A program made the position numbers and the translations under genes. The notes beneath the pieces were generated by a model. It did not search any database and was not told where the DNA came from. It saw nothing but the letters and a program-made list of their open reading frames with translations. 10,581 bases of DNA from a virus: the UHGV virus genome UHGV-0266139; one strand, given 5' to 3'. Position 1 is the first letter of the stretch. Every line of letters starts with the position of its first letter. Of this stretch, positions 1 through 10,581 are shown in pieces.

Positions 1-49
1 AACGCGTTATAAATAAATGTATGAAAGATGTTGAGCTGGTCAACGTCTA

Positions 50-86
50 CGGGGGAGAACATCCCCCGCTAACCTTTTTCTTATTT
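50..86 (+). terminator. Weak intrinsic terminator candidate: stem CGGGGGA (50-56) / TCCCCCG (62-68), loop GAACA, T-rich tract from 75
   Basis: Perfect 7-bp inverted repeat seen directly; the T tract starts 6 nt after the stem, which is suboptimal. It lies inside a reading frame that is open from the window edge into ORF 99..200. Confidence 0.3.
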
Positions 87-98
87 GAGGATTTACCT

Positions 99-200
99 AT
101 GGTTGAATTTTTGATTTATCTGGCTGTAGGGCTAACTATCGTATATTCACTGGCACATATTGGCGTTTCTGCTGTGTGTAACGCTTTCAAGTATCATTAA
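99..200 (+). CDS. Small hydrophobic peptide, 33 aa (MVEFLIYLAVGLTIVYSLAHIGVSAVCNAFKYH), one predicted transmembrane helix
   Basis: ATG at 99 preceded by GAGGA (88-92) at 6-nt spacing; hydrophobic core. The same frame is open upstream to the window start (ATG at 21), so the true start is uncertain. Below the size of the supplied ORF track. Confidence 0.35.
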   Translation: MVEFLIYLAVGLTIVYSLAHIGVSAVCNAFKYH

Positions 201-219
201 TTAAATCGATGAATTGAAC
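200..219. repeat. 20-bp perfect direct repeat ATTAAATCGATGAATTGAAC, copy 1 (intergenic, between the two small ORFs)
   Basis: Identical 20-mer found again at 1145-1164; hand comparison. Confidence 0.6.
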
Positions 220-253
220 TATAGATGATGGTCGTTTTCAAAGAGGATTATCT

Positions 254-427
254 ATGGATCTTTTTGTCTATTTCGCTACTCTGCTGTTTTTGACTATCGT
301 CGCTGGCATTAAATTGATTTTTATATCGCTGGTGGTGTTTTTCAAATTTCTAATCGGTACGCCTTACGGCTGGGTATGTTTAATCCTGTTTATTCTTTTT
401 AGTTGCTGTAAAAAGGATACTAAATAA
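254..427 (+). CDS. Small membrane protein, 57 aa (MDLFVYFATLLFLTIVAGIKLIFISLVVFFKFLIGTPYGWVCLILFILFSCCKKDTK), two predicted transmembrane helices, charged C-terminus
   Basis: ATG at 254 preceded by AGAGGA (242-247) at 6-nt spacing; two hydrophobic stretches and KKDTK tail; followed downstream by two plus-strand terminators. Confidence 0.45.
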   Translation: MDLFVYFATLLFLTIVAGIKLIFISLVVFFKFLIGTPYGWVCLILFILFSCCKKDTK

Positions 428-585
428 TAGTGTAATCTGCCTTTTCTCCTTATGGTTATTAACAGGGGATCTTCTTTGAGGATTCCCGATTAAAAGCCAT
501 AAAACACACTCCAGTACAGTGTTTTCATAGTCAGTGATCTATACAACATAAAAACATAACAAGTATAGATTGAGTGTTAATCCTC

Positions 586-611
586 CCGCCTCGAAAGAGG
601 CGGTTATTTTT
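586..611 (+). terminator. Intrinsic terminator: stem CCGCCTC (586-592) / GAGGCGG (597-603), GAAA loop, TTATTTTT tail
   Basis: Perfect 7-bp GC-rich stem with tetraloop immediately followed by a T tract on the plus strand. Confidence 0.6.
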
Positions 612-687
612 CTGGCTTTAAAGAATAATGTAGCATTATGTTCATTATAACCTCATCTTTGTTGTGCAAACCTAACCTAAACTTACT

Positions 688-713
688 AGGGACTCTTCGG
701 AGTCCCTTTTTTT
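688..713 (+). terminator. Intrinsic terminator, possibly bidirectional: stem AGGGACTC (688-695) / GAGTCCCT (700-707), TTCG loop, T7 run to 713
   Basis: Perfect 8-bp stem with TTCG loop and seven T on the plus strand; an A run on the other side means it may also end the minus-strand gene 720..1061. Confidence 0.6.
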
Positions 714-719
714 ATTGTC

Positions 720-1061
720 TTAAGCAACAAGACGCAATCCTTTGTTTTTCATCTTCTGTATTTTCTTTTCTTTAACGGACTTTTCTCTATACCCTTTCAA
801 TTCTTCAAGTAGTTTAATCTGTTCCCTCAATGATTTCTTGTAGTCTTCTTGCATGGCTTTAAATCCTTCACCAAGTTTTACGTAATTATCATGTAAGGAT
901 TTGTACTTTTCCATTAGCTCATTGCATTCTTTCTCTTTAATCGAAAGTTTAATGGTCAAAAATTCACACTCAGCATTAGTCTGTTTTAGCGTTTCAGAAA
1001 GAATCATGTTTTTCTCTTTCAGAGTTTTACGGGACAGTGCTTTTTCGTTTAAAGTTGCCAT
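720..1061 (-). CDS. Hypothetical coiled-coil protein, 113 aa (MATLNEKALSRK...KGLRLVA)
   Basis: Track ORF 720..1130 begins at a TTG; the ATG at 1061 has GGAG 8 nt upstream on the minus strand. K/E-rich heptad-like sequence. No family recognised. Confidence 0.6.
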   Translation of the reverse strand: MATLNEKALSRKTLKEKNMILSETLKQTNAECEFLTIKLSIKEKECNELMEKYKSLHDNYVKLGEGFKAMQEDYKKSLREQIKLLEELKGYREKSVKEKKIQKMKNKGLRLVA

Positions 1062-1086
1062 AGTAGGGTCTCCAATTAAATTAAAA

Positions 1087-2049
1087 TTAAGCTGCTTTGC
1101 GAACGTCGAACACATTTTCGAACGCATCAAAAACTTTAACTGTCATTAAATCGATGAATTGAACGGAAGAACCATTTTTCTTAATCAGGTATTTGTTCCA
1201 TTCTGCAACGTCTGCAACAGTACGCTTTTCGTTAAGCAGAATCCAAAGAGCTTGTTTGTCTTTAGATTCAACCGCTTGAGTAAAGAAGTCTTTAGATTCA
1301 ACTTCCTGATCTGCTTCAACTGCCACAGGAGCAACTTCTTTAGCTTTCAGTTCTTCAATCTCAGCTTTCTGTGCTTCGATGATCTGGTCTTTTTCTTTCA
1401 GTGCAGCTTTCAGTTCTGCGATCTGTGCTTCCAGTGCAGAGAAACGATCTTCAACAGCAACCGGAGAAACAGCATTCACCTGTGCTTCCAGTTCCAGGAA
1501 TGCTTCGCAAGATTCAATGCGTTCTTTCTCTTCACCTTCATAAGCAACCAGTTCTACAACTTCTTTTTCGGTAGCGTGGCTGTTAAAGAATACAGCAAAG
1601 TAAGGATTGCCGGATTTAGTGAAGTTCAGTTTAGCTTTTCCGGTAACTTCTTTACGACGACCAAAGGTAATGTTGCAATCAGCGGTATCCTGAAAATCCA
1701 TGTTAGGAGCGGAAACGATAGCAGTATCACCAGCAATAACCAGGTGGAACAGTTCAGAAGAGTTCTTAACGGTGAAAGTAACGATGTGGTCTACTGCAAC
1801 GTCTTTAGCAGGTTTAACGCGGTCGATTGCTTTACGAACGCCGTTAGACAGTTTACCGTCAACACCAAAGCCAGCCGCGATCAGTGCTTCACGATGTGCT
1901 TTAAAGCCAGCGAAAGCGGATTTCTGCTGCGCAAAGGAAACATGAGCAACAACTTTCGGCTGAATCTTCTTGTTTGCTTCGGTGCCAAATTTGATAACTG
2001 ATTTAGCGTTGGTTACTTCGTTAGTGAAAAAGTTAGCGGAAAATAACAT
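1087..2049 (-). CDS. Hypothetical protein, 320 aa: N-terminal domain, central A/E/K-rich coiled-coil region with an internal short repeat, C-terminal domain
   Basis: ATG at 2049 with AGGAG 8 nt upstream; long ORF whose antisense frame is F/C-rich junk. Internal DNA repeat TCTTTAGATTCAAC at about 1257-1270 and 1289-1302 (encoding VESKD twice). No family recognised. Confidence 0.7.
   Translation of the reverse strand: MLFSANFFTNEVTNAKSVIKFGTEANKKIQPKVVAHVSFAQQKSAFAGFKAHREALIAAGFGVDGKLSNGVRKAIDRVKPAKDVAVDHIVTFTVKNSSELFHLVIAGDTAIVSAPNMDFQDTADCNITFGRRKEVTGKAKLNFTKSGNPYFAVFFNSHATEKEVVELVAYEGEEKERIESCEAFLELEAQVNAVSPVAVEDRFSALEAQIAELKAALKEKDQIIEAQKAEIEELKAKEVAPVAVEADQEVESKDFFTQAVESKDKQALWILLNEKRTVADVAEWNKYLIKKNGSSVQFIDLMTVKVFDAFENVFDVRKAA
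1145..1164. repeat. 20-bp perfect direct repeat ATTAAATCGATGAATTGAAC, copy 2 (inside the 3-prime end of the 320-aa gene, encoding VQFIDLM on the minus strand)
   Basis: Identical to 200-219; hand comparison. Confidence 0.6.
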
Positions 2050-2093
2050 TATAAATACTCCTGTGGAAAGTTAGTTTTAATTGTTCATTTCAA

Positions 2094-2131
2094 GCCTCCT
2101 TTGCTGCAACAAGGGAGGCTTTTTCTTTTTT
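2094..2131 (+). terminator. Plus-strand intrinsic terminator candidate: stem GCCTCC (2094-2099) / GGAGGC (2114-2119), TTTTTCTTTTTT tail (2120-2131)
   Basis: GC stem followed directly by a 12-nt T-rich tract on the plus strand. No plus-strand gene lies upstream of it (the flanking genes are minus-strand), so its target transcript is unknown. Confidence 0.45.
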
Positions 2132-2163
2132 AAAGCCATCATATAATTCTCAGTGAAAGTGGA

Positions 2164-2343
2164 TTAACAAACTTGAACGTTAATCTTTACCTGAATTTCG
2201 TATTTCTTCATTAGCTTGTAGAATCCGCTTCTATCAATTCCTTCCTTCTTAAAGAAGTTTTCCCCGCCTCGCTCAGTGTCGCTGTAAAAGCGTTTAGCAA
2301 TATCAACAATCATTTCACGAGTGAACTTAACAGGTCTAGCCAT
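2164..2343 (-). CDS. Small HTH DNA-binding protein, 59 aa (MARPVKFTREMIVDIAKRFYSDTERGGENFFKKEGIDRSGFYKLMKKYEIQVKINVQVC); first gene of the leftward operon
   Basis: Track ORF starts at a GTG (2358); the ATG at 2343 has GAGGAA 7 nt upstream. RP..F...DIA...Y....GI..FYK.MKK pattern resembles Hin/resolvase-type or Mor/C-type HTH domains (from memory). Paralogous to 5629..5856. Confidence 0.55.
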   Translation of the reverse strand: MARPVKFTREMIVDIAKRFYSDTERGGENFFKKEGIDRSGFYKLMKKYEIQVKINVQVC

Positions 2344-2443
2344 CAGTCGATTCCTCACATGTGGATTAATAATTTCTTAAAAAAGAGCATTTCGCTCTGA
2401 ACACTTGTATTTATAAAATGATTTTCAGAAAACCCTGTAAAAC

Positions 2444-2463
2444 CACTGTATATCCGATCAGTG
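2444..2463. promoter_or_regulatory. Operator-like inverted repeat CACTG-N10-CAGTG (CACTGTATATCCGATCAGTG)
   Basis: Palindromic arms seen directly; near-identical second copy at 2529-2548; lies in the control region upstream of the leftward operon. Confidence 0.35.
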
Positions 2464-2528
2464 GGAGCACGAATTGCTAAAGAGAAGATTAATTATTAAT
2501 CAATTCGTACAATATTCAACCGAAAAAG

Positions 2529-2548
2529 CACTGTATATCTAACCAGTG
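2529..2548. promoter_or_regulatory. Operator-like inverted repeat CACTG-N10-CAGTG (CACTGTATATCTAACCAGTG), second copy
   Basis: 17 of 20 positions identical to 2444-2463, same dyad arms, 85 bp away. Confidence 0.35.
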
Positions 2549-2700
2549 CTGTATGAATTAGCAGTGAATCAGGAGATTTTCAGAAGTGAACAATCATTTC
2601 ACACATGTATTTATAACGTGGAAATTCTTGCTTATCATCTATATAGGGACTGTTTAGAAAATTTCAACCCCCACCAGTGAGAAAAAGTATAAAATAATCC

Positions 2701-2729
2701 TTGACAGTTGTCAATACACTTGACCTAAG
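2701..2729. promoter_or_regulatory. TTGACA-N13-TTGACCTAAG motif (contains palindrome TTGACAGTTGTCAA), copy 1
   Basis: Same arrangement TTGACA-N13-TTGACCTAGA recurs at 4318-4346; -35-like hexamers but no good -10 at 17 bp, so promoter versus operator is undecided. Confidence 0.3.
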
Positions 2730-2912
2730 CGAGAAATGGCTATCAAATTTTTTGTTTGAAAATGGTAGATCAGGATTATCAACCTTTATAACCTATTATG
2801 GCACGGAGACCTTTTGACAATTCTTTTTAAATCATTAACTTACGCCACTTTTTGGTGATTTTTTGATTAAATAATATACAATAATTTTCTATCAAAATAT
2901 TTGATGGGAATT

Positions 2913-3105
2913 GCCCCTGAAATTCTGAATTTTTGCCCCCGAATAAAATCCCCAAGATTCCACTATCCAATTTTTGCCCCTGAAACCTACTATTTTTGCC
3001 CCTGAAATTCTGGGAAACAGTGATTTTGCCCCTCATTTTTGCCCCTGAAATGACAATAATTGCCCCTGAAAATCTAATTTTTGCCCCTGAAATTTGCCCC
3101 CGAAA
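2913..3105. repeat. Array of about 9 same-orientation direct repeats, consensus TTTTTGCCCC(T/C)GAAA, mostly 21-22 bp apart (iteron-like)
   Basis: GCCCC cores start at about 2913, 2935, 2976, 2998, 3028, 3041, 3062, 3083, 3096 (hand-counted); a further copy at 5446-5455 sits inside a terminator stem. Confidence 0.7.
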
Positions 3106-3246
3106 GGGATTGGTGAGAAAAACCATTTATAAAACATTAACTTAGCGAGGGCAAAAGCGGGGAATCGGGCGTGCATAGATATTATATAACACATTCGCTA
3201 CGCTCATGTGTAAAACCAAAAACAACAAATAACCAAAAAGATATTA

Positions 3247-3265
3247 GGAGGGCGTAGCCCGACTG
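3247..3265. repeat. About 20-bp direct repeat GGAGGGCGTAGCCCGACTG, copy 1
   Basis: Matches 3678-3697 (GGAGGGCTTTAGCCCGACTG) with one indel; the two copies bracket the CTAG-rich module. Confidence 0.5.
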
Positions 3266-3285
3266 CGCGAAGCGCCAACCAATTG

Positions 3286-3530
3286 CTTCTAGTAACAACT
3301 AATTTAAACTAGATGATACTAGATGGTCTTAGAAGGAATTAACTAGTTTGCTCGCTCGCTTCGCTCACTCTCAAACGTCTGCGACGCCACTGCGTGGCAT
3401 CGAGAATCACTTCTGAAAGGATTTTCTCGAAAGGGATTTAAACTAGTTACTAACTGATTCTAGAAAGATAGTAATAATCACTTTGAAGATAATAGTAGTT
3501 AACTGGTTACTAGATGATTCTAGATCACTT
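3286..3530. repeat. CTAG-rich repeat module: units at 3308-3326, 3441-3467 and 3501-3527 (AACT(A/G)GTTACTA..TGATTCTAGA) flanking a GC-rich core at about 3348-3410
   Basis: Eight CTAG tetramers within about 235 bp against a handful across the rest of the window (by eye, not exhaustively counted); units 3441-3467 and 3501-3527 match at 21 of 27 positions; the core contains GCTC direct repeats and a GCCAC/GTGGC dyad. Confidence 0.6.
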
Positions 3531-3553
3531 TAATGATCATGAAAGGTATTGGT

Positions 3554-3582
3554 ATCCCTTCGGGATTGCAACCTTCGGTTGC
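3554..3582 (+). other. Two adjacent short hairpins: ATCCC/GGGAT (3554-3566) and GCAACC/GGTTGC (3568-3582), both with TTC(G) loops
   Basis: Inverted repeats seen directly; no clean T run follows, so RNA structure or processing site rather than a canonical terminator. Confidence 0.3.
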
Positions 3583-3677
3583 TAAATTGCTTCCTGATTA
3601 TTATTTCTCCAAAAGAAAGATTCTTATATTCTAAAGATACTTCTTCGTTTTGATGATGATTTAATCAAATCTATGAA

Positions 3678-3697
3678 GGAGGGCTTTAGCCCGACTG
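3678..3697. repeat. About 20-bp direct repeat GGAGGGCTTTAGCCCGACTG, copy 2
   Basis: See 3247-3265. Confidence 0.5.
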
Positions 3698-3786
3698 AAT
3701 ACAATCACCTTCTAAAAGAGATAAATTTTTCTCGTTATAAATAATAGTGAACTTACTTGATTCACTTTCTTTTAGAGGATACCACT

Positions 3787-4245
3787 ATGATCAATACTAA
3801 AACTCCTTTCGTACTTCTGGGTCTGGACTCTGAAAACTATGGTAACTTCCATATGCTAGAAGTTTTCGCTAATCGTGGTTATAACATCATTCGTCATTCC
3901 GAAGACTCCAACTACTCAACTGCTTTCTACGCTTTAAAACGAAATGGTCGTCCTACTGTGATCATCGACTGTTTTACTGATGAGGGTCGTCTTCAATACA
4001 ACGATATTCCAGCAATTATTGTTCGTGATGATCTGCCGTTTCAAGTCCGTGAGTATGACGTTGATTTAGGCTCTTACTACTCTTTAGCGGAACTTGACCA
4101 GATTATGGCTGATTACGGTAAACAACCCGCTCAGGAAGCCCCAGAACAAGATGAAGAAGATGAGGAAGACGAAGACTACGCTCCAATCTGTTTCTCTTCT
4201 CAGAATGGCTTCTACGGTTACGATGAAGGCTTAGATATGCTGTAA
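3787..4245 (+). CDS. Highly acidic protein, 152 aa (about 31 D/E against about 10 K/R), with poly-acidic stretch EQDEEDEEDED near the C-terminus; function unknown, candidate DNA mimic or other host-interaction protein
   Basis: Track ORF starts at TTG 3757; the ATG at 3787 has AGAGGA 7 nt upstream. Codon choice looks like a highly expressed enterobacterial gene (CTG, CGT, GGT, TTC, AAC, TAC), judged by eye. First gene downstream of the repeat-rich region. Confidence 0.7.
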   Translation: MINTKTPFVLLGLDSENYGNFHMLEVFANRGYNIIRHSEDSNYSTAFYALKRNGRPTVIIDCFTDEGRLQYNDIPAIIVRDDLPFQVREYDVDLGSYYSLAELDQIMADYGKQPAQEAPEQDEEDEEDEDYAPICFSSQNGFYGYDEGLDML

Positions 4246-4280
4246 GTTAGGTCAACCCTTTGGTGTCTTGTCAAGGGGTA

Positions 4281-4309
4281 TTGGCAAAAATTTATGACTT
4301 TTTTATGAT
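4281..4309 (+). promoter_or_regulatory. Near-consensus sigma70-type promoter: TTGGCA (4281-4286), 17-bp spacer, TATGAT (4304-4309)
   Basis: 5 of 6 matches in each hexamer with optimal spacing; sits between the acidic gene and the 48-aa ORF. Assumes an enterobacterial-type host. Confidence 0.45.
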
Positions 4310-4317
4310 TATCGCAC

Positions 4318-4346
4318 TTGACAAATTTTAACCCATTTGACCTAGA
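4318..4346. promoter_or_regulatory. TTGACA-N13-TTGACCTAGA motif, copy 2
   Basis: Same architecture as 2701-2729; lies just downstream of the promoter call and upstream of the 48-aa ORF. Confidence 0.3.
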
Positions 4347-4367
4347 TTTGTAAAGAGGATGTTAATT

Positions 4368-4514
4368 ATGAACACTACTAAGAAAGTTGATGGACGTAAA
4401 AACCCGAACCGCAAACCGTGGACCCCAAACCTGAATTTCTCAATGGTTGACTTCCATGAACGCCAGCGTCGCATTCAAGAAGAAATTGATCGCGCGATTG
4501 CTGAATCTAAATGA
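4368..4514 (+). CDS. Small basic protein, 48 aa (MNTTKKVDGRKNPNRKPWTPNLNFSMVDFHERQRRIQEEIDRAIAESK)
   Basis: ATG at 4368 with AGAGGA about 10 nt upstream, downstream of the promoter call; basic N-terminus, helical-looking C-terminus. Below the size of the supplied ORF track. Confidence 0.45.
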   Translation: MNTTKKVDGRKNPNRKPWTPNLNFSMVDFHERQRRIQEEIDRAIAESK

Positions 4515-4541
4515 GATAAAAATTTCTTTATAAATAAAATT

Positions 4542-4563
4542 GTTCCGGTTGAGATGCCGGAAC
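4542..4563 (+). other. Hairpin GTTCCGG / CCGGAAC with 8-nt loop immediately upstream of the Rha-like gene ribosome-binding region
   Basis: Perfect 7-bp inverted repeat; followed by TAGGAGGA, not a T run, so not a terminator; possible leader structure. Confidence 0.3.
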
Positions 4564-4603
4564 TAGGAGGATCATCACTAAACCGTTTAAGGGGGATTTT
4601 ACT

Positions 4604-5437
4604 ATGAATACTGTTACTACTATGAATACTGCTGTTAAAACTGCTTCTGTGTCTCTGGTTGTTGATAACACCAAACCGCTGACCATGTCTTCTCGTCAGA
4701 TTGCTGAATTTACCGGAAAAGAACACCACAAAGTTAAAGTTGATATAACTAAGATGTTGAATGCTCTAGGTTATGAAGATCACGCGAAGTTTCGCGTCAT
4801 CTATTTTGACCAATACGGACGCGAACAAAACGAATATCAACTAGACGAAGAAATGACTCTGACTCTTGTCACTGGTTACGATGTTAAGCGTCGAATGGTT
4901 GTTATTCAGGAATGGAAACGACTGAAAGAAGAAAATGAAAAACTGCGTTCTCAGCAAGTCAACCCATACGCAAACATGACTAAGCTCGATTGGATTCGTG
5001 AGGCAATGGAATTGGAAGCCGCAAACGAACAACTGATTCAAGAAAAAGAACAATTAGTTGATCTTCATATCCGTAAAGCTATTGATGCACACAGTCTTAG
5101 CCGCTTATTAGGCGAAAAACGAGGCTCTACGAAGGTACAAATGATTCTGAAAGGTTTATGTGCTGCTGGTGTTCTTGAGCGTCGTCTGGATGCTTCTGGT
5201 AAGCCTAAAGGCTATGATCTGCTTCCTCCTGGCTATATGTTCGCTCGTATGTCGGCACACGGTCAGATCGAGTTCACTGCTGATGCTATCCCGCATCTCG
5301 TAAAACTCGGATTGCTTGAAGAAGAAAAGGCCGCAACTTTGAAATTGCCACAGCCGAACAACTCACGAGCAATTGTCAATAACACTGCTTTGCTGATTCG
5401 TCAGAATGTTGGATCGCTAGAACACTTCGGACTGTAA
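4604..5437 (+). CDS. Rha-family phage regulatory protein (N-terminal Rha-like domain), 277 aa, with coiled-coil middle and C-terminal domain of unknown function
   Basis: ATG at 4604 with GGGGG 8 nt upstream. N-terminal SSRQIAEFTGKEHHKV...TLTLVTGYDVKRRMVVIQEW matches my recollection of the Rha domain pattern (VAE.FGK.H..V..DI, L.VMGFTG), not a database hit. A 13-bp tandem duplication ACTATGAATACTG (4601-4613, 4619-4631) gives MNTVTTMNTAV. Confidence 0.75.
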   Translation: MNTVTTMNTAVKTASVSLVVDNTKPLTMSSRQIAEFTGKEHHKVKVDITKMLNALGYEDHAKFRVIYFDQYGREQNEYQLDEEMTLTLVTGYDVKRRMVVIQEWKRLKEENEKLRSQQVNPYANMTKLDWIREAMELEAANEQLIQEKEQLVDLHIRKAIDAHSLSRLLGEKRGSTKVQMILKGLCAAGVLERRLDASGKPKGYDLLPPGYMFARMSAHGQIEFTADAIPHLVKLGLLEEEKAATLKLPQPNNSRAIVNNTALLIRQNVGSLEHFGL

Positions 5438-5445
5438 TAATTTTT

Positions 5446-5470
5446 GCCCCTGAATTTCAGGGGCTTTTTT
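5446..5470 (+). terminator. Strong intrinsic terminator: GCCCCTG (5446-5452) / CAGGGGC (5458-5464), T6 run (5465-5470); built on a copy of the GCCCCTGAA repeat
   Basis: Perfect GC-rich stem followed directly by TTTTTT, 9 nt after the Rha-like stop codon. Confidence 0.75.
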
Positions 5471-5473
5471 GTA

Positions 5474-5509
5474 TCTGTAGATGCGCTGAACTTTAAGCGC
5501 ATCTACAGA
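5474..5509. promoter_or_regulatory. Perfect 13-bp inverted repeat TCTGTAGATGCGC-N10-GCGCATCTACAGA, followed by palindrome GATGCATC (5514-5521)
   Basis: Seen directly; lies in the intergenic gap between the Rha terminator and the minus-strand cassette; candidate protein-binding site or second hairpin. Confidence 0.4.
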
Positions 5510-5587
5510 TTTGGATGCATCTATAGATCAGTCAAGATTTGGACTCAGCTTCGAGATGAGCGCAGTTTTGCGCCGATTGTTTTACAT

Positions 5588-5613
5588 ACAAAAAAGCCAC
5601 TCCGAAGAGTGGC
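5588..5613 (-). terminator. Minus-strand intrinsic terminator: GCCACTC (5596-5602) / GAGTGGC (5607-5613) with a run of T on the minus strand (plus-strand A run 5588-5595)
   Basis: On the minus strand the stem has a UUCG loop and is followed by UUUUUUGU; 16 nt past the stop codon of gene 5629..5856. Confidence 0.65.
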
Positions 5614-5628
5614 AAAGAGAATCAAAAC

Positions 5629-5856
5629 TCAAAAACCTGTTGCTTCTACGATCTGACCATCACCGATCTGAACATAGAATTTAATGTCTAACTTCTTCAT
5701 ATTCTTATAGAATTGGGCGATTGAGATCCCATGTTCACTAAGAATCTGTTCTTTCGCTTCCTTACCACGATCCGCTGTATAATAAGCGTAGGCAATATCA
5801 GCCATCTGTTCAGCGTTAAAACGGGCAGGGCGACCGCGAGTAGCTTTAGTAGTCAT
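5629..5856 (-). CDS. Small HTH DNA-binding protein, 75 aa (MTTKATRGRPARFNAEQMADIAYAYY...GISIAQFYKNMKKLDIK...), paralog of 2164..2343
   Basis: Track ORF starts at GTG 5889; ATGs at 5862 and 5856, the latter 9 nt from GGAG. RGRPARF then helix-turn-helix pattern resembles the Hin/resolvase-type DNA-binding domain (GRPR arm plus HTH), from memory. The start could be 5862. Confidence 0.55.
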   Translation of the reverse strand: MTTKATRGRPARFNAEQMADIAYAYYTADRGKEAKEQILSEHGISIAQFYKNMKKLDIKFYVQIGDGQIVEATGF

Positions 5857-5891
5857 AGTCATTTTCTCCAAATTAAAGTGAATGTTCACCT

Positions 5892-6494
5892 TTATTTAGA
5901 GGACTTACATTTTATCGGAAAAAGTTCTCCATCGTCAACCGACATAAAGAACTCTGCCTTAATCCCGTACTTCTTCAACCGTGAATAGTATGTACCCCGA
6001 CTAATATCAACCTTGCGAAGCACTTCGAAGAACTCTTTAGGATTCCTGTAATAATGGCTATAACGCACGTTAGCGAGTTCAACGAATAGTTCCCTTGTAT
6101 CACCATAGCCTTTCTTGAAAGCCTCGTTACGATAGCGTGTAATAGCGTGATTCGATCTCTTCTGTTTAAGCACTTCCCTGATCGGCTTCCACTGCAACCG
6201 ATAGATTGGACCGCCATCCACTCGATAATAACGCTTGATATCAAAATCAAACCATTCACGGACTCGCTGAAACTCTGTCTGTGATGTTCGGTGCTTCTTA
6301 AAGAAGTTATGAATATCGGTATACCCATGATCGCGATACAACTCGATTAAAATCTCTTTCGCTTCCTCACGACTAAAGCCAGATGTTGTGTAGTCGGTTT
6401 TTAAATGCTTATGCTTAACGGGTAAACGATATTCATGATCGGTACAAGACAAGGCTAATTCTAATTCATCTCTTTCTTGCTGATTAATTAGCAT
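5892..6494 (-). CDS. Basic 200-aa protein rich in R/K/Y with a C-terminal HTH module related to the two small HTH proteins; candidate DNA-binding regulator
   Basis: ATG at 6494 with AGGAGG about 4 nt upstream; C-terminal ...[26 protein letters not shown] aligns without gaps to the 75-aa protein (IS, Y, KK, IK). No nuclease motif (GIY-YIG, HNH, LAGLIDADG) seen. Confidence 0.65.
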
Positions 6495-6581
6495 ACACCC
6501 TCCTTAAATCTTAATACCCGTATTTATCAAAATATCAACAATTTAATAAATACCTTCATATTTCGTAATGAGGGTAATTAC

Positions 6582-8489
6582 ATGAAACTAATTTCTAATA
6601 AGGCCAAATTAAAAAAGATTCTCAGAAATGCAGCCAAATATATTACGCCACCGCCTAAACTCCTTCCATCGGAATGGTGCGAAGCGAATATGGTGCTGGT
6701 AGATGGTCCTCAAGCTGGGGATAAAGTTAAACTGCTGTCATTCCAGAAAGGCATGATTGATGCTCCTTTCCTTGAGAACAAGAAAAAGTATGTTCTGATG
6801 ACCAGTGCGCAGATCGGAAAGACTACCATCCTGAACGGCATCCTGTTTAACCAGATGGCTAACGATCCATGCAATATGATTATCGGACAATCAACCGCTA
6901 AAGAAATGTCTCAATATCTCGCTGGTAAGATCCGACCGTCTATCGAAGCATGTGATGCATTAAAAGACGTGGTTACAGACAAGAATGATCGCAATTCGGT
7001 TAATAACAATAACCAGCTACAGCTCAAAACGAATCACTTCCTGTACATGGTATCGCTTACCAGCCCATCAACCCTACGTGGTAAGACCGCAAAGGTTGGA
7101 TTACTTGACGAAATTGATGCTGCCACAGCCTCAGAAGAAGGTGATCCGGTGGCACTGGCTGCTAACCGTTTAACTACCTTTGGAGATGAAGGTCGATTAG
7201 TCGTATCCAGTACCCCGACCAGTAAGCTGGGAAGCATTAACCAGCAATGGTTATCAAGCGATATGCGTATGTTTTTTGTTCCGTGTCCTCATTGCGGGGA
7301 ACACCAGGTGATCGAGTGGGAAAACGTTCAATTTGAATGGCGTAACATCGATGGTAAGAACTTACCCGATCCTGATACCGCTCGTTATATTTGCCCCCAC
7401 TGTAAGAACGCATGGACAGAAGGGGAACGAATCAGGGCAGTAGCGCAAGGCGAGTGGAGAGCAACCCGTGAAAGTGAAGTAGCAGGATTCTGGATCAGTC
7501 GTCTGTATTCACCTTTCAGCACGATTCGCGCTTGTGTGGTTGATTTTAGTCATGCGTGGCAATCCTTTGATTTACAATCCTTTTTTAACACCGTGTTAGG
7601 CAAGGTATACGATGATCAGGACACGGCAGTAGAAGCAAATGAACTGGAACAACTCAAAACAGATGTTTCTATCGAGAATATCCCTGATGACGTGATTTTC
7701 TTGTGCTCAGGAATTGACCAGCAATTGGACCGCGCAGAATCTACCATCTTAGGTGTAGCGAAAGATAAGGTTTACATTCTGGATCACCGTAGCTTTTACG
7801 ATCATAACTGTGAACGATATGAATCCCCTGTATGGGATCGTCTGATTAACTTCAAGAAAACCAAATTCTATAACGTTAATGGTGAACGTGTGCCAATGCT
7901 CGCCAGCTTCCTTGATACATCGAACGGTCGATTCACTCAAGCCGGATACCGTATTTGCGGCAAGTGGAAGAACCTACACGCTATCAAAGGTAGTTCATCT
8001 GGTAATGCTCCAGTGATTCCGGTTAAACCTACCCGCACAGGTGGTCATGAATTGCTTATGCTGGGTGTTAACGTTGGTAAATCCGCTGTTCGTGAAATGC
8101 TGGTTAGAAACCTGAAAGATAATCCTCATATTGGCTTAGAAATATCAGAAACCGTTCCTGATGATTATCTCGATCAGCTTTTGAGTGAATCCATCAAGCG
8201 TACTACTACTGGCGTGCGTTGGGTGAAAAATCCAGGTAGTACCCGAAACGAGGCTCTCGACTGTCTGGTTTATAGCTATGCTGCTTCTCGCTACGTCCTT
8301 TCAAAAATGTCATGGGATAAACTCATTGCAATGAAAGACAGCTTAAACCGTGTTGTCGAAGAATCCGTAGAAGCTCCTAAATCGCAATCTGACGAGCAAA
8401 TAGAAGAAACTAAGCCAATCACACGACCACAACGTCAAAACATCGCCAGACGTCCAAATAGAGGCCGTAGCTGGGTAACATCGTTCTAA
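6582..8489 (+). CDS. terL: Terminase large subunit, lambda gpA type, 635 aa
   Basis: ATG with GAGGG 7 nt upstream. Walker A-like SAQIGKTT, acidic VGLLDEID, zinc-ribbon CPHCGEHQ...CPHC, and blocks [32 protein letters not shown] match lambda gpA (ACPHCGEEQ, YSPFTTW, AGIDSQLDR, RNEALDCFVYALAA) from memory; size matches (lambda 641 aa). Confidence 0.9.
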
Positions 8490-9066: not shown

Positions 9067-10509
9067 ATGTTTAATCTTTTTCGACGCAAAAAGGCGGTAG
9101 AAACTCCAGTTAAAACTAATCACCGCCAGCAACAACCAAAAATTTTCATCGACAAACAAGTAGAAAAATTCCAGAAAGATTTGTCTAAGCGTTCTTTGGG
9201 CTTGGTCGGTGATCGCATTGATGGATCGCTTCAACAAGATACTATCACAGGAACCTTCAATAAGGCTCTCAAATCGAACGGTAAGCGCCTTTATGATCAG
9301 GGTCGTACTCTGGCCTTAAACACTTCCGTAGGCAGTCGCTACACGCAATACATCACCGATATGGTGGTTGGTACTGGCCTAGATCCGAAGCCGTCAGTTG
9401 TTAAATCAAATGGAAAACTTGATAGCGCACTGAATAAGCAGATCGAGAATGCTTTCTGGAAGTGGGCGCAGAATGCTAAACGCTTCTCTCGTAACGGTCG
9501 CTTTAACTTCCGTGAACTGCTGGTAATGGCTGAACGTGAGCGCGTTATGGGTGGTGAGTGCTTCATAGTTTTAACCAAAGAAAACAATGAGTTAAATGTT
9601 TCTATCCTGTCTGCTGATAAGTGCGACTGGACGCTCAACCGTGAAGTAAGCAAAGAACGTGCTATCTATCAGGGGATAGAGTATGACGTAGAAACAATGC
9701 GCCCTGTTGCATACTGGTTTCGTAAAATCAACCTACTGACTCAGACTTACACAGGTGATAACTATCGCGTAGATGCTTCGCAAGTATGCCATTATTATCA
9801 ACCACTTGCGGCTGAATCTCTGCGTGGTGTGACTGACTTCCTGCCAGTGATCAAGGATATTGCGCATCAAGACGCATTCCGCGAAACCGCGATCATCCAG
9901 AAACGTATTGCAGCTAGCTCTATGGGCTTTATCGAACGTCCGAAAGATTCTGGTGACGATTTTGATACTGGTGAAGAGGATGAACAATATCAAGCGCCGG
10001 AAGTAGTACAGGATTTTGCACCGGGTACTATTCAGGAATTGCCGGAAGGGGCAACGATCAAGAGCATCCAGGCGACGCAAAGCGGTGATGATTTCAATTC
10101 CTTCAATGATGCGATGTTTACTAGCGTATCAATGGGCTTAGGCGTGTTTAAACAGGGCTTGACTGGTGATACTTCCCAGATCAACTACTCAGCCGCGCGT
10201 TTCGGTGAACTACTTCAACGTAACCGTGTTAAATCGCTACAAAACAAATTGATTGAAACAGTGGTATTGCCAATTTTTGAAGCATATCTACGCCATTATT
10301 CCGCGCGTGGTATTGTTCCGATTCGTATTACTGCAATCCCGCATATTATCGATAACACTACTATTATTCGTCCGCGTTTTGAGTCCGTCGATGTTATTAA
10401 AGATGTGAACGCTGATATTGCTTTAATTGATAACGGACTTAGAATCTATCCCAAAAGGATTTTATTCCAGACAATGATGCTGCAAGCAAAATGCAGCATC
10501 GCCTCGTAG
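9067..10509 (+). CDS. Portal protein, lambda gpB type, 480 aa
   Basis: ATG with AAGGGG 6 nt upstream. Blocks FWKWAQNAKRF...NFRELLVMAERERVMGGECFIV and GLGV...YSAAR parallel lambda gpB (AAWKEFAED...TFTMMIREGV...GELFV; GLGVSYEQLSRNYAQMSYSTAR) from memory; correct synteny after terminase and gpW. Confidence 0.85.
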   Translation: MFNLFRRKKAVETPVKTNHRQQQPKIFIDKQVEKFQKDLSKRSLGLVGDRIDGSLQQDTITGTFNKALKSNGKRLYDQGRTLALNTSVGSRYTQYITDMVVGTGLDPKPSVVKSNGKLDSALNKQIENAFWKWAQNAKRFSRNGRFNFRELLVMAERERVMGGECFIVLTKENNELNVSILSADKCDWTLNREVSKERAIYQGIEYDVETMRPVAYWFRKINLLTQTYTGDNYRVDASQVCHYYQPLAAESLRGVTDFLPVIKDIAHQDAFRETAIIQKRIAASSMGFIERPKDSGDDFDTGEEDEQYQAPEVVQDFAPGTIQELPEGATIKSIQATQSGDDFNSFNDAMFTSVSMGLGVFKQGLTGDTSQINYSAARFGELLQRNRVKSLQNKLIETVVLPIFEAYLRHYSARGIVPIRITAIPHIIDNTTIIRPRFESVDVIKDVNADIALIDNGLRIYPKRILFQTMMLQAKCSIAS

Positions 10510-10581
10510 TTTTCGACTTTCTTCTCCCATCGCGTCAGTATGCGGCGAAAGCGATTCATCCAGCTATGTGTTCTTTCCACA
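10491..10581 (+). CDS. 5-prime end of the next gene (MQHRLVVFDFLLPSRQYAAK...), overlapping the portal stop by 19 nt and running off the window; by synteny possibly a head protease or scaffold gene
   Basis: ATG at 10491 in a different frame from the portal, open to the window end; the 19-nt overlap mirrors the lambda B/C overlap. No clear Shine-Dalgarno and no sequence match to lambda gpC, so weak. Confidence 0.3.
   Translation, partial: MQHRLVVFDFLLPSRQYAAKAIHPAMCSFH

Follow-up and report, generated by a model that had tools for sequence, protein, structure and literature searches.

What function do three neighbouring genes that resemble no known family serve in the phage that carries them? 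The question is raised by positions 720 to 2,343 of the virus genome UHGV-0266139, a stretch of 10,581 nucleotides (the window), in which an earlier note, written from the sequence alone, had described a leftward operon of three genes (here HTH59, p320, and p113). The window corresponds to the left arm of a prophage of ~35 kb that has inserted in ycdX. The note had suggested host-takeover or recombination functions; nothing that we found points to either, and comparison with related loci points to iteron binding by p320 and to a link with ClpX. The explanation that we tentatively favor is that the genes form an SOS-controlled switch operon, in which p320, an iteron-binding and probably origin-binding protein, would be kept short-lived by a dedicated ClpX adaptor.

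All three open reading frames (ORFs) were confirmed, with a Shine-Dalgarno (SD) sequence before each (Table 1), and their ATG starts are supported because homologues have the same lengths. The description of the genes as tightly spaced holds for p320 and p113, which are 25 nt apart, and fails for HTH59 and p320, which are separated by 114 nt containing a strong, conserved hairpin; a single operon is therefore plausible but unproven. The statement that the proteins have no enzymatic motif and belong to no known family was borne out. None of them had a significant match in Pfam, PHROGs, NCBIfam, PADLOC, or PDB sequences: the family scans and the PDB sequence search returned chance coiled-coil matches only, and with the PADLOC defense models HTH59 and p320 gave no match and p113 gave chance-level matches. 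The fold search recommended in the note (Foldseek with predicted structures) found nothing significant, and Foldseek against BFVD gave no match. Relatives are few. An exhaustive HMMER scan of 1.84 billion cluster representatives recovered only ~12 clusters at 50% identity for p320; p113 has relatives in 8 clusters, all from Escherichia coli, and HTH59 has 25 homologue clusters, in E. coli, Salmonella, and Proteus.

Our comparisons cover 20 or more related loci; with HTH59 homologues as anchors, the corresponding region was fetched from prophages of Salmonella, Proteus, and other E. coli. The layout is the same in every locus and consists of a repeat array, a strong promoter, a conserved leader, an HTH59 gene, a hairpin, and a gene for a protein of 305–350 amino acids (aa), usually with a partner gene downstream. 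In the window, the array of direct repeats (iterons) lies ~850 bp upstream of the p320 gene. Across the window and loci L001–L036, six iteron types pair one-to-one with six types of N-terminal domain (N-domain) of the large protein. Written in the sense of the operon (where we write TTCAGGGGCAAA, the plus strand of the window has its reverse complement, TTTGCCCCTGAA), the repeat TTCAGGGGCAAA accompanies N-domains beginning MLFSANFF (window, L001, L005–L019, L035, and L036); GAGGGGCAAAAAT accompanies MLFSANFFANEV (L021); TAGTGTAGG accompanies MKNT(T)KRITFNLF (L025, L026, L027, L029, L030, and L034); GGAATCTAGGGGAT accompanies MKNVKIWF (L003); CTAGGGAT(A/G), in an 11-bp phase, accompanies MNNTKFTINV (L023); and CGGGGA-rich repeats accompany MKQNNFTITV (L031–L033). 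The iteron core AGGGGCAAA is common to the window and L021, whose N-domains are 54% identical.

Comparison of individual loci separates the iterons from other genes. Between L003 and L025, L026, or L027, the identities of p152 (89%–92%), p74 (97%–100%), TerS (92%), p64 (88%–98%), p200 (93%), and Rha (95%) are high, whereas the N-domains are only 22%–24% identical and the iterons are different. L025 and L026 have the same iterons and N-domains that are 91% identical, and their HTH59, p200, and Rha proteins are only 56%–64% identical. L034 and L035 encode an identical HTH59 protein within an 815-bp block (promoter, leader, and HTH gene) of ~92% identical DNA, and their similarity is lost in exactly two separate flanking blocks, the repeat array and the large gene. 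Among the segments compared, the p320-type N-domain is the only product that co-varies with iteron type; HTH59 does not, and the C-terminal domain of p320 does not track the iterons. Selection for a matched protein and site explains why two separated blocks were exchanged around a conserved core, and simple linkage does not; the N-domain therefore most probably reads the repeats. We also count in favor of this link a metagenomic variant (P0122, in L022) in which the p320 N-domain is replaced in situ by ORF6N, a predicted DNA-binding domain (Pfam E-value 1e-20), while the coiled coil, the C-terminus, and the downstream DNA are 98% identical to those of p320. On these comparative grounds we regard the iteron link as well supported and consider it likely that p320 binds the array through its N-domain. 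As candidate iteron binders, HTH59, p152, Rha, p200, p74, p64, and TerS were set aside, each being dissociated from the iteron type in at least one pair of loci.

The layout given for p320 in the earlier note (N-domain, coiled coil, and C-terminal domain) agrees roughly with the AlphaFold model, which has a mean predicted local distance difference test score (pLDDT) of 60. The model comprises a beta-rich N-domain of ~160 residues (pLDDT 63–87), a long helix at residues 199–236, and an unreliable, low-confidence C-terminus. The heptad pattern is borderline, with residues 198–226 reaching the 95th percentile of shuffles. N-domains are basic in seven of the eight types (isoelectric point [pI] 9.6–9.8, charge +8 to +13), and the remainder of each protein is acidic, as is the C-terminal domain of p320 ("type A"), which ends in -AA. 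The common form in E. coli and Shigella (type B, 313 aa) is 97%–98% identical to p320 over its first 244 residues, and it has an unrelated C-terminus and no gene downstream. The distant homologues P0123, P0127, and P0129 keep a C-terminal WNKYL motif and have strongly diverged N-domains; hhalign found no signal between the two N-domain superfamilies. Within the coiled coil, P0023 and P0024 have a 21-aa (three-heptad) deletion. The motif VESKD, which the note had called a tandem repeat, is indeed duplicated, with its copies 30 nt apart rather than head to tail. Its copy number, which was to be checked for variation among relatives, is constant: every relative examined has exactly two copies, the second being VEVED or VEAKD in most. 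In the Salmonella locus L028, which is 98.8% identical to L026 over its full length, the gene caller reports no 341-aa large protein (5184–6550), and the large gene may be disrupted in this copy.

If p320 binds the iterons, what role would it play there? No replication initiator, helicase, primase, or CI-type self-cleaving repressor is recognizable anywhere in the prophage. As there is no other recognizable replication gene, and as the iteron array has the look of an origin, p320 is most likely an origin-binding, initiator-like protein. We rank replication initiator first among its possible roles, although we favor it without much confidence. The same co-variation would also be expected if p320 bound the iterons as a transcriptional or architectural regulator, either activating or silencing the divergent early promoters or regulating its own gene. 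The array lies in a 1.4 kb control region between divergent operons, with promoters, operators, and other repeats; the window showed no DnaA boxes or other hallmarks of an origin; and a coiled coil followed by an acidic tail resembles the architecture of an activator. However, 8 to 20 phased direct repeats (at 21–23 bp or 11 bp) are typical of origins and centromeres and not of operators, the array is ~200 bp from the nearest promoter, and the phage would still be without a candidate initiator. We consider it unlikely that p320 is a regulator of this kind rather than an initiator.

As an initiator, p320 would have its closest counterpart in lambda O, a phage protein of ~300 aa whose N-terminal part sets specificity for phased direct repeats, whose N-terminal (DNA) and C-terminal (partner) modules are reshuffled between related phages, and whose turnover is controlled by ClpXP, as we propose for p320. 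Lambda O binds the ClpX N-domain at a site that overlaps the site for the XB peptide of SspB (PMC3983244). In contrast to lambda O, p320 has no sequence or fold similarity to such initiators (no match to a Pfam Phage_rep_O-type family, PHROG, NCBIfam, or PDB entry), its iterons lie outside its own gene whereas those of lambda are inside the initiator gene, no partner resembling lambda P is present, and the degron of lambda O is N-terminal and is used with no dedicated adaptor. P4 alpha is similar in the role and in the leader-termination-gated expression that we propose here, but p320 is not its relative. An exchangeable N-domain combined with shuffled C-terminal modules is also seen in ORF6N, KilA-N, Bro-N, and Rha proteins, and P0122 has ORF6N before the same coiled coil and C-terminus; unlike these proteins, p320 has an N-domain that matches none of the named domains and is predicted to be beta-rich.

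The remainder of the noncoding region contains a second family of repeats and several GC-rich hairpins, and a pair of 19-bp direct repeats brackets the iteron array (Table 1). Similar features are present in L003 and L021. In L021, the 325-nt spacer between the HTH gene and the large gene contains three perfect DnaA boxes (TTATCCACA; 7692–7859). DnaA boxes were set aside as an origin marker, as three perfect boxes are found in L021 only and none in the window.

A second set of comparisons concerns the partner gene. p113 is small, highly charged, and helical; the coiled coil ascribed to it in the note was not reproduced in a crude heptad test. The slot downstream of the large gene is variable and is occupied by four partner families: p113, a 77-aa protein (L021), proteins of 67–76 aa (the Salmonella group), and proteins of 305–333 aa (L003 and L031). 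These families have no similarity outside their last ~15 residues, in which they have a common tail, [KR]xPxLR[LI]V[AGS]-COOH (examples are NKGLRLVA, RPTLRLVA, RPTLRIVA, KPTLRLVG, KPSLRLVS, VPKLRIVA, and IPKLRLVG). The tails are in register, at the extreme C-terminus, with the XB peptide of SspB (RGGRPALRVVK-COOH), a ligand of the ClpX N-domain (PMC3983244). We counted the motif LR[LIV]Vx-COOH at 11 of the 3090 distinct ORF ends given by the six frames of the fetched loci; 10 of the 11 belong to partner genes, and 26 of the 3090 ORFs end in -AA. The large protein has both a partner gene and an -AA end in 12 of 16 loci, which represent six N-domain/iteron types, and it has no partner in 4 of 16, where three tail variants (YCQ, FMQ, and NVA) are found. 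The -AA ends (KAA, EAA, RAA, YAA, and FAA) occur on homologous and nonhomologous C-terminal domains alike, and the p113 gene is found only beside large proteins with an -AA tail. The ssrA tag is a C-motif-1 degron of ClpX, with a C-terminal -AA at its core (PMC12723719), and XB tethering alone is sufficient for ClpXP to degrade a bound target (PMC12373786). These tails suggest that p113 is a ClpX adaptor and p320 its substrate, a proposal that we regard as evenly balanced.

Three features recall SspB: RP-x-LR-[VLI]-V-x-COOH stands at the extreme C-terminus in an identical register, the cargo has the -AA end of the ssrA tag, and the protein is small, with a flexible or charged stretch preceding the tail. 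Unlike SspB, p113 has no SspB substrate-binding domain (no Pfam or NCBIfam match), and SspB is unrelated to the four partner families, which are likewise unrelated among themselves; the partner here is encoded beside one dedicated cargo, and its ClpX binding is putative. A bolder proposal, which we consider doubtful, is that the lineage has evolved a "natural proteolysis-targeting chimera (PROTAC)," with at least four unrelated small proteins that have only an SspB-like ClpX-tethering tail in common, each dedicated to one cargo from a new family of iteron-binding origin or switch proteins with exchangeable specificity domains and an ssrA-like -AA end, which would give an SOS-triggered, self-limiting pulse of replication or induction.

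The common tails and the co-variation might instead be by-products of mosaic recombination or shared ancestry, with the genes being accessory cargo (a moron, defense, or host-takeover function). The three genes are near the prophage end (in L001 the ycdX junction is ~1.6 kb away), the slot downstream varies, and the G+C content of p320 (42%–47%) is above that of its flanks (33%–36%). Set against this, there is no PADLOC match, the HTH gene and the large-protein gene are kept as a pair in every relative of the lineage, Proteus included, two separate blocks were exchanged around the conserved 815-bp core, and the tail motif is found in 10 partner genes versus 1 of ~3080 background ORF ends. We regard accessory cargo as very unlikely.

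How would the operon be controlled? The leftward promoter is conserved in the relatives and has a palindrome, TTGACAACTGTCAA (TTGAC-N4-GTCAA), over its -35 element; the leader from this promoter to HTH59 exceeds the coding regions in conservation and contains three LexA-like SOS boxes. The pattern ACTGT-N9-CAGT was found twice, versus 0.09 occurrences expected. With a LexA position weight matrix (PWM), the boxes scored 15.4, 22.1, and 13.2, compared with 17.5–28.1 for the E. coli boxes used in training; there was no other comparable score in the intergenic regions of the window, and a single match of 13.3, at 1578, fell inside the gene for p320. As a positive control for the pattern we used the dinI box in L004. 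In 14 of 16 loci the LexA-like boxes keep fixed positions (-223, -205, and -120) upstream of the HTH gene, with spacers that vary and CTG...CAG cores that are kept. Two of the boxes in the window, CACTGTATATCTAACCAGTG and CACTGTATATCCGATCAGTG, resemble the E. coli dinB box. In L021, a 66-aa ORF stands in place of the boxes. Judged from these sequence matches, SOS (LexA) control of the operon is rather probable, and the view of the earlier note that this is an early operon fits the conserved boxes and the strong upstream promoter.

LexA-like boxes upstream of the operon are also what would be expected if p320 were a LexA-controlled antirepressor that, like 186 Tum, N15 AntC, and the Gifsy proteins, inactivated a noncleavable prophage repressor by protein–protein contact, with the iteron co-variation being incidental. 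This paradigm is well documented (PMC3121763). The known operons (186 tum, N15 antC, and Gifsy gfoA/gfhA) likewise have SOS boxes before a prophage operon that is apart from the structural genes, and a small first gene followed by a gene for a protein of ~300 aa. The ORF6N protein in the same slot of L022 matches PHROG "anti-repressor" families; the Atlantibacter locus L020 has a small HTH gene followed by a gene for a 289-aa protein that is Rha/ANT-like by eye only; the prophage has no recognizable CI-type self-cleaving repressor; and an unstable, protease-controlled product would suit a transient inducer. However, p320 resembles no antirepressor family (Ant, KilAC, ORF6N, Bro-N, Rha, or Tum), and no repressor target was identified. 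The Rha-family, "anti-repressor"-like protein of this phage is encoded by a separate gene (Table 1), and a basic N-domain is better suited to DNA binding. Moreover, the large protein here, unlike those of the antirepressor operons, co-varies with DNA repeats, and an antirepressor would leave unexplained the joint exchange of the N-domain and a physically separate repeat array. An antirepressor role for p320 appears improbable to us.

For the first gene, the designation of a helix-turn-helix (HTH) protein stands insofar as the AlphaFold model has three helices (9–21, 29–34, and 38–47; pLDDT 79) and its best matches are HTH domains, but the matches themselves are not significant. The top Foldseek matches in the PDB are AsnC/Lrp, NtrC/Fis, homeodomain, and Mos1 HTH domains (all with E ≥ 2), and there is a weak match to the PHROG "HTH DNA binding protein" (E = 0.084) and no Pfam match. 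HTH59 has an invariant N-terminal arm, MARPVKFTRE, and on the basis of the model it is a probable small DNA-binding regulator.

Two hairpins are kept along with these genes. The first, a small terminator-like hairpin at the end of the leader, is conserved in all loci with loop and stem variants, and the arrangement resembles the leader-RNA termination control of P1, P4, and N15, where the conserved leader likewise closes with a small intrinsic terminator immediately ahead of the first gene. An Rfam scan of positions 1–4600 found no RNA family, C4 included. The second, between HTH59 and p320, is present in all relatives, with a compensatory change in L003. Only on the plus strand is it followed by a T-run, and it reads as an intrinsic terminator antisense to the operon; the plus-strand RNA folds with an energy of -19.0 kcal/mol and the minus-strand RNA with -17.0 kcal/mol, and the T-run and the G.U/C.A asymmetry favor the plus strand in most variants. 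The corresponding hairpin has a perfectly paired stem in L007 and is flipped in place in L008 (from IMG/VR), where it is an exact reverse complement with unchanged flanks. An antisense RNA like P22 sar might end at this hairpin, but in view of the flipped copy in L008, the perfect stem in L007, and our failure to find a convincing plus-strand promoter we set the idea aside for the present. A motif, TTATAAATA(C/A)..GTG, occurs four times in the window and could be a -10-like element. Three of the copies are just upstream of genes or leader elements, and one is antisense over the p320 start codon, ~65 nt before the terminator; a short antisense RNA covering the ribosome-binding site of p320 is conceivable, though nothing supports it.

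In the mechanism that we propose, transcription would start at the strong promoter and run through the leader with its three LexA-like boxes, and in a lysogen LexA would probably keep the module low. HTH59 would be a small three-helix DNA-binding regulator. The basic N-domain of p320 would recognize the 8–9 phased direct repeats upstream, its coiled coil would oligomerize the protein, and its acidic C-terminal domain, with an ssrA-like -AA end, would be an effector or partner surface. p113 would bind p320 and, through its SspB-like tail (...GLRLVA-COOH), tether it to the N-domain of ClpX, whereupon ClpXP would keep p320 short-lived.

Several points weigh against this explanation. We found no sequence or structural similarity to any DNA-binding, initiator, or adaptor fold, and the N-domain model has only medium confidence and builds on a shallow alignment. 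All six of the co-varying types come from a single prophage lineage, and the true iteron binder might be a gene outside the compared segments. With regard to an origin, the iterons lie outside the p320 gene and ~850 bp from it, neither DnaA boxes nor an AT-rich unwinding element could be identified in the window, and a helicase loader is not evident. The hairpin between HTH59 and p320 resembles an antisense terminator, which speaks against a single operon. The LexA PWM was built from an informal set of E. coli boxes, the LexA-like boxes are downstream of the only strong promoter called rather than over it, no convincing promoter could be placed over them, and L021 and L023 have no such boxes. 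The common E. coli type B protein has neither an -AA tail nor a partner, and the ClpX link is therefore dispensable; a single deletion could account for the joint loss of both. Finally, p113 has a Gly where the other partners and SspB have a Pro.

If the explanation is correct, three "hypothetical proteins" that occur in many genomes of E. coli, Shigella, and Salmonella would become a defined control module, and a candidate initiator would fill a gap in a prophage family that has no annotated replication gene. The new DNA-specificity domains, with six repeat-type targets readable from genomes, would provide orthogonal protein–DNA pairs. The only phage case in the literature that we searched is a true SspB homologue in Pseudomonas phage pf16; as far as that literature extends, the partner proteins would be the first phage-encoded ClpX adaptors outside the SspB fold, and they would be a natural precedent for engineered XB-peptide degraders (CLIPPERs). 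The tail rule [KR]xPxLR[LIV]Vx-COOH could serve to mine other adaptors. Repeat binding, binding of the tail to ClpX, and turnover that depends on p113 and ClpXP can all be checked by standard assays.

Table 1. Coordinates of genes, protein segments, and control elements in the window
Feature	Position	Strand	Details
HTH59	2343–2164	minus	59 aa; SD GAGGAA
p320	2049–1087	minus	320 aa; SD GGAG
p113	1061–720	minus	113 aa; SD GGAG
Iteron array	2910–3104		8–9 direct repeats TTTGCCCC(T/C)GAA, spacing mostly 21–22 bp
p320 N-domain	1555–2049	minus	residues 1 to ~165; pI 9.8, net charge +8
p320 coiled-coil segment	1339–1458	minus	residues ~198–237
VESKD duplication	1258–1272 and 1288–1302	minus	exact 15-nt repeat GTCTTTAGATTCAAC
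p320 terminal Ala-Ala (...VRKAA-COOH)	1090–1095	minus	candidate ssrA-like C-motif-1 ClpX degron
p113 C-terminal tail NKGLRLVA-COOH	723–746	minus	SspB XB-like motif
Strong leftward sigma-70-like promoter	2714–2686	minus	TTGACA, 17 nt, TATACT; 11/12 matches
Three LexA-like SOS boxes	2444–2463, 2529–2548, 2547–2566		in conserved leader
Small terminator-like hairpin	2398–2384	minus	AGAGC-GAAAT-GCUCU then U6, directly 5' of HTH59 SD
GC-rich hairpin	2092–2121		between HTH59 and p320; 12 pairs then TTTTTCTTTTTT on plus strand
TTATAAATA(C/A)..GTG motif	2049–2058, 3735–3750	plus	
TTATAAATA(C/A)..GTG motif	2401–2416, 2601–2616	minus	
19-bp direct repeats	2824–2842 and 3126–3144		
Rest of noncoding region	3105–3757		second repeat family ACTAGATGAT(A/T)CTAGAT-like, contains TCTAGA
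Small hydrophobic ORFs	21–200 and 254–427	plus	59 and 57 aa
Terminator	586–603	plus	strong
Hairpin (terminator)	688–707	plus	strong, for convergent genes; just past p113 stop codon
p152	3787–4245	plus	strongly acidic end, DEEDEEDEDY...GFYGYDEGLDML
Rha-family gene	4604–5437		
74-aa HTH59 paralogue	5629–5853	minus	32% identity to HTH59
200-aa protein	5892–6494	minus	two similar HTH-like repeats by eye
TerL	6582–8489		
Portal gene	9067–10509		
IS5-family match	10438–10581		right end of window

The prophage itself is previously undescribed as a ycdX-integrating element of ~35 kb. In strain GN4741 it measures ~35.3 kb and lies between the two ycdX halves, and 70 of 5426 complete E. coli genomes have chromosomal prophages that match the window. 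When phage and plasmid collections were searched with its nucleotide sequence, the IS5 fragment at the right end was the only match; p320 gave no tblastn match in phages, and in the closest sequenced phage the TerL identity is only 43%. A TerL locus search yielded one Atlantibacter relative (L020), which has no p320; a locus search with the HTH alignment found no genomes, and IMG/VR scans with distant p320 homologues found nothing. At the right end of the window, which matches IS5-family insertion sequence (IS) elements, homology to related prophages stops at 10446. Given this junction, the portal gene is truncated and reads into the IS, and this copy of the prophage is probably defective.

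From the left end, the prophage carries TerS (just outside the window), two genes for small membrane proteins, and then p113, p320, and HTH59 on the opposite strand. The 1.4 kb noncoding control region follows, and then p152, a small gene, and the Rha-family gene. The earlier note had the trio diverging from the packaging operon; the genes across the control region are instead of an early type (p152 and Rha). A second leftward pair, consisting of the 74-aa HTH paralogue and the 200-aa protein, comes next, and to the right of it are TerL, portal, capsid, tail, and lysis genes, an endonuclease-like gene, and a large serine recombinase (integrase). TerS (phrog_57, E = 9e-17; L001 18938–19489) is at the extreme left end, beside the ycdX junction, and ~6 kb of regulatory genes on both strands separate it from TerL.

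The two strong plus-strand terminators after the hydrophobic ORFs are convergent with p113, and the hairpin nearer to p113 may act in both directions. The second leftward pair is divergent from TerL; neither of its proteins has a family match, and the pair may be a late-operon regulator or repressor. p152, which likewise has no family match, is kept in all relatives independently of iteron type. In the Proteus relative L023, an extra CapR/T5orf172-type endonuclease-like gene (2763–3419) is inserted beside p152, and a related endonuclease-like gene (phrog_681) is located near the integrase in an E. coli prophage (L004 27964–28962).

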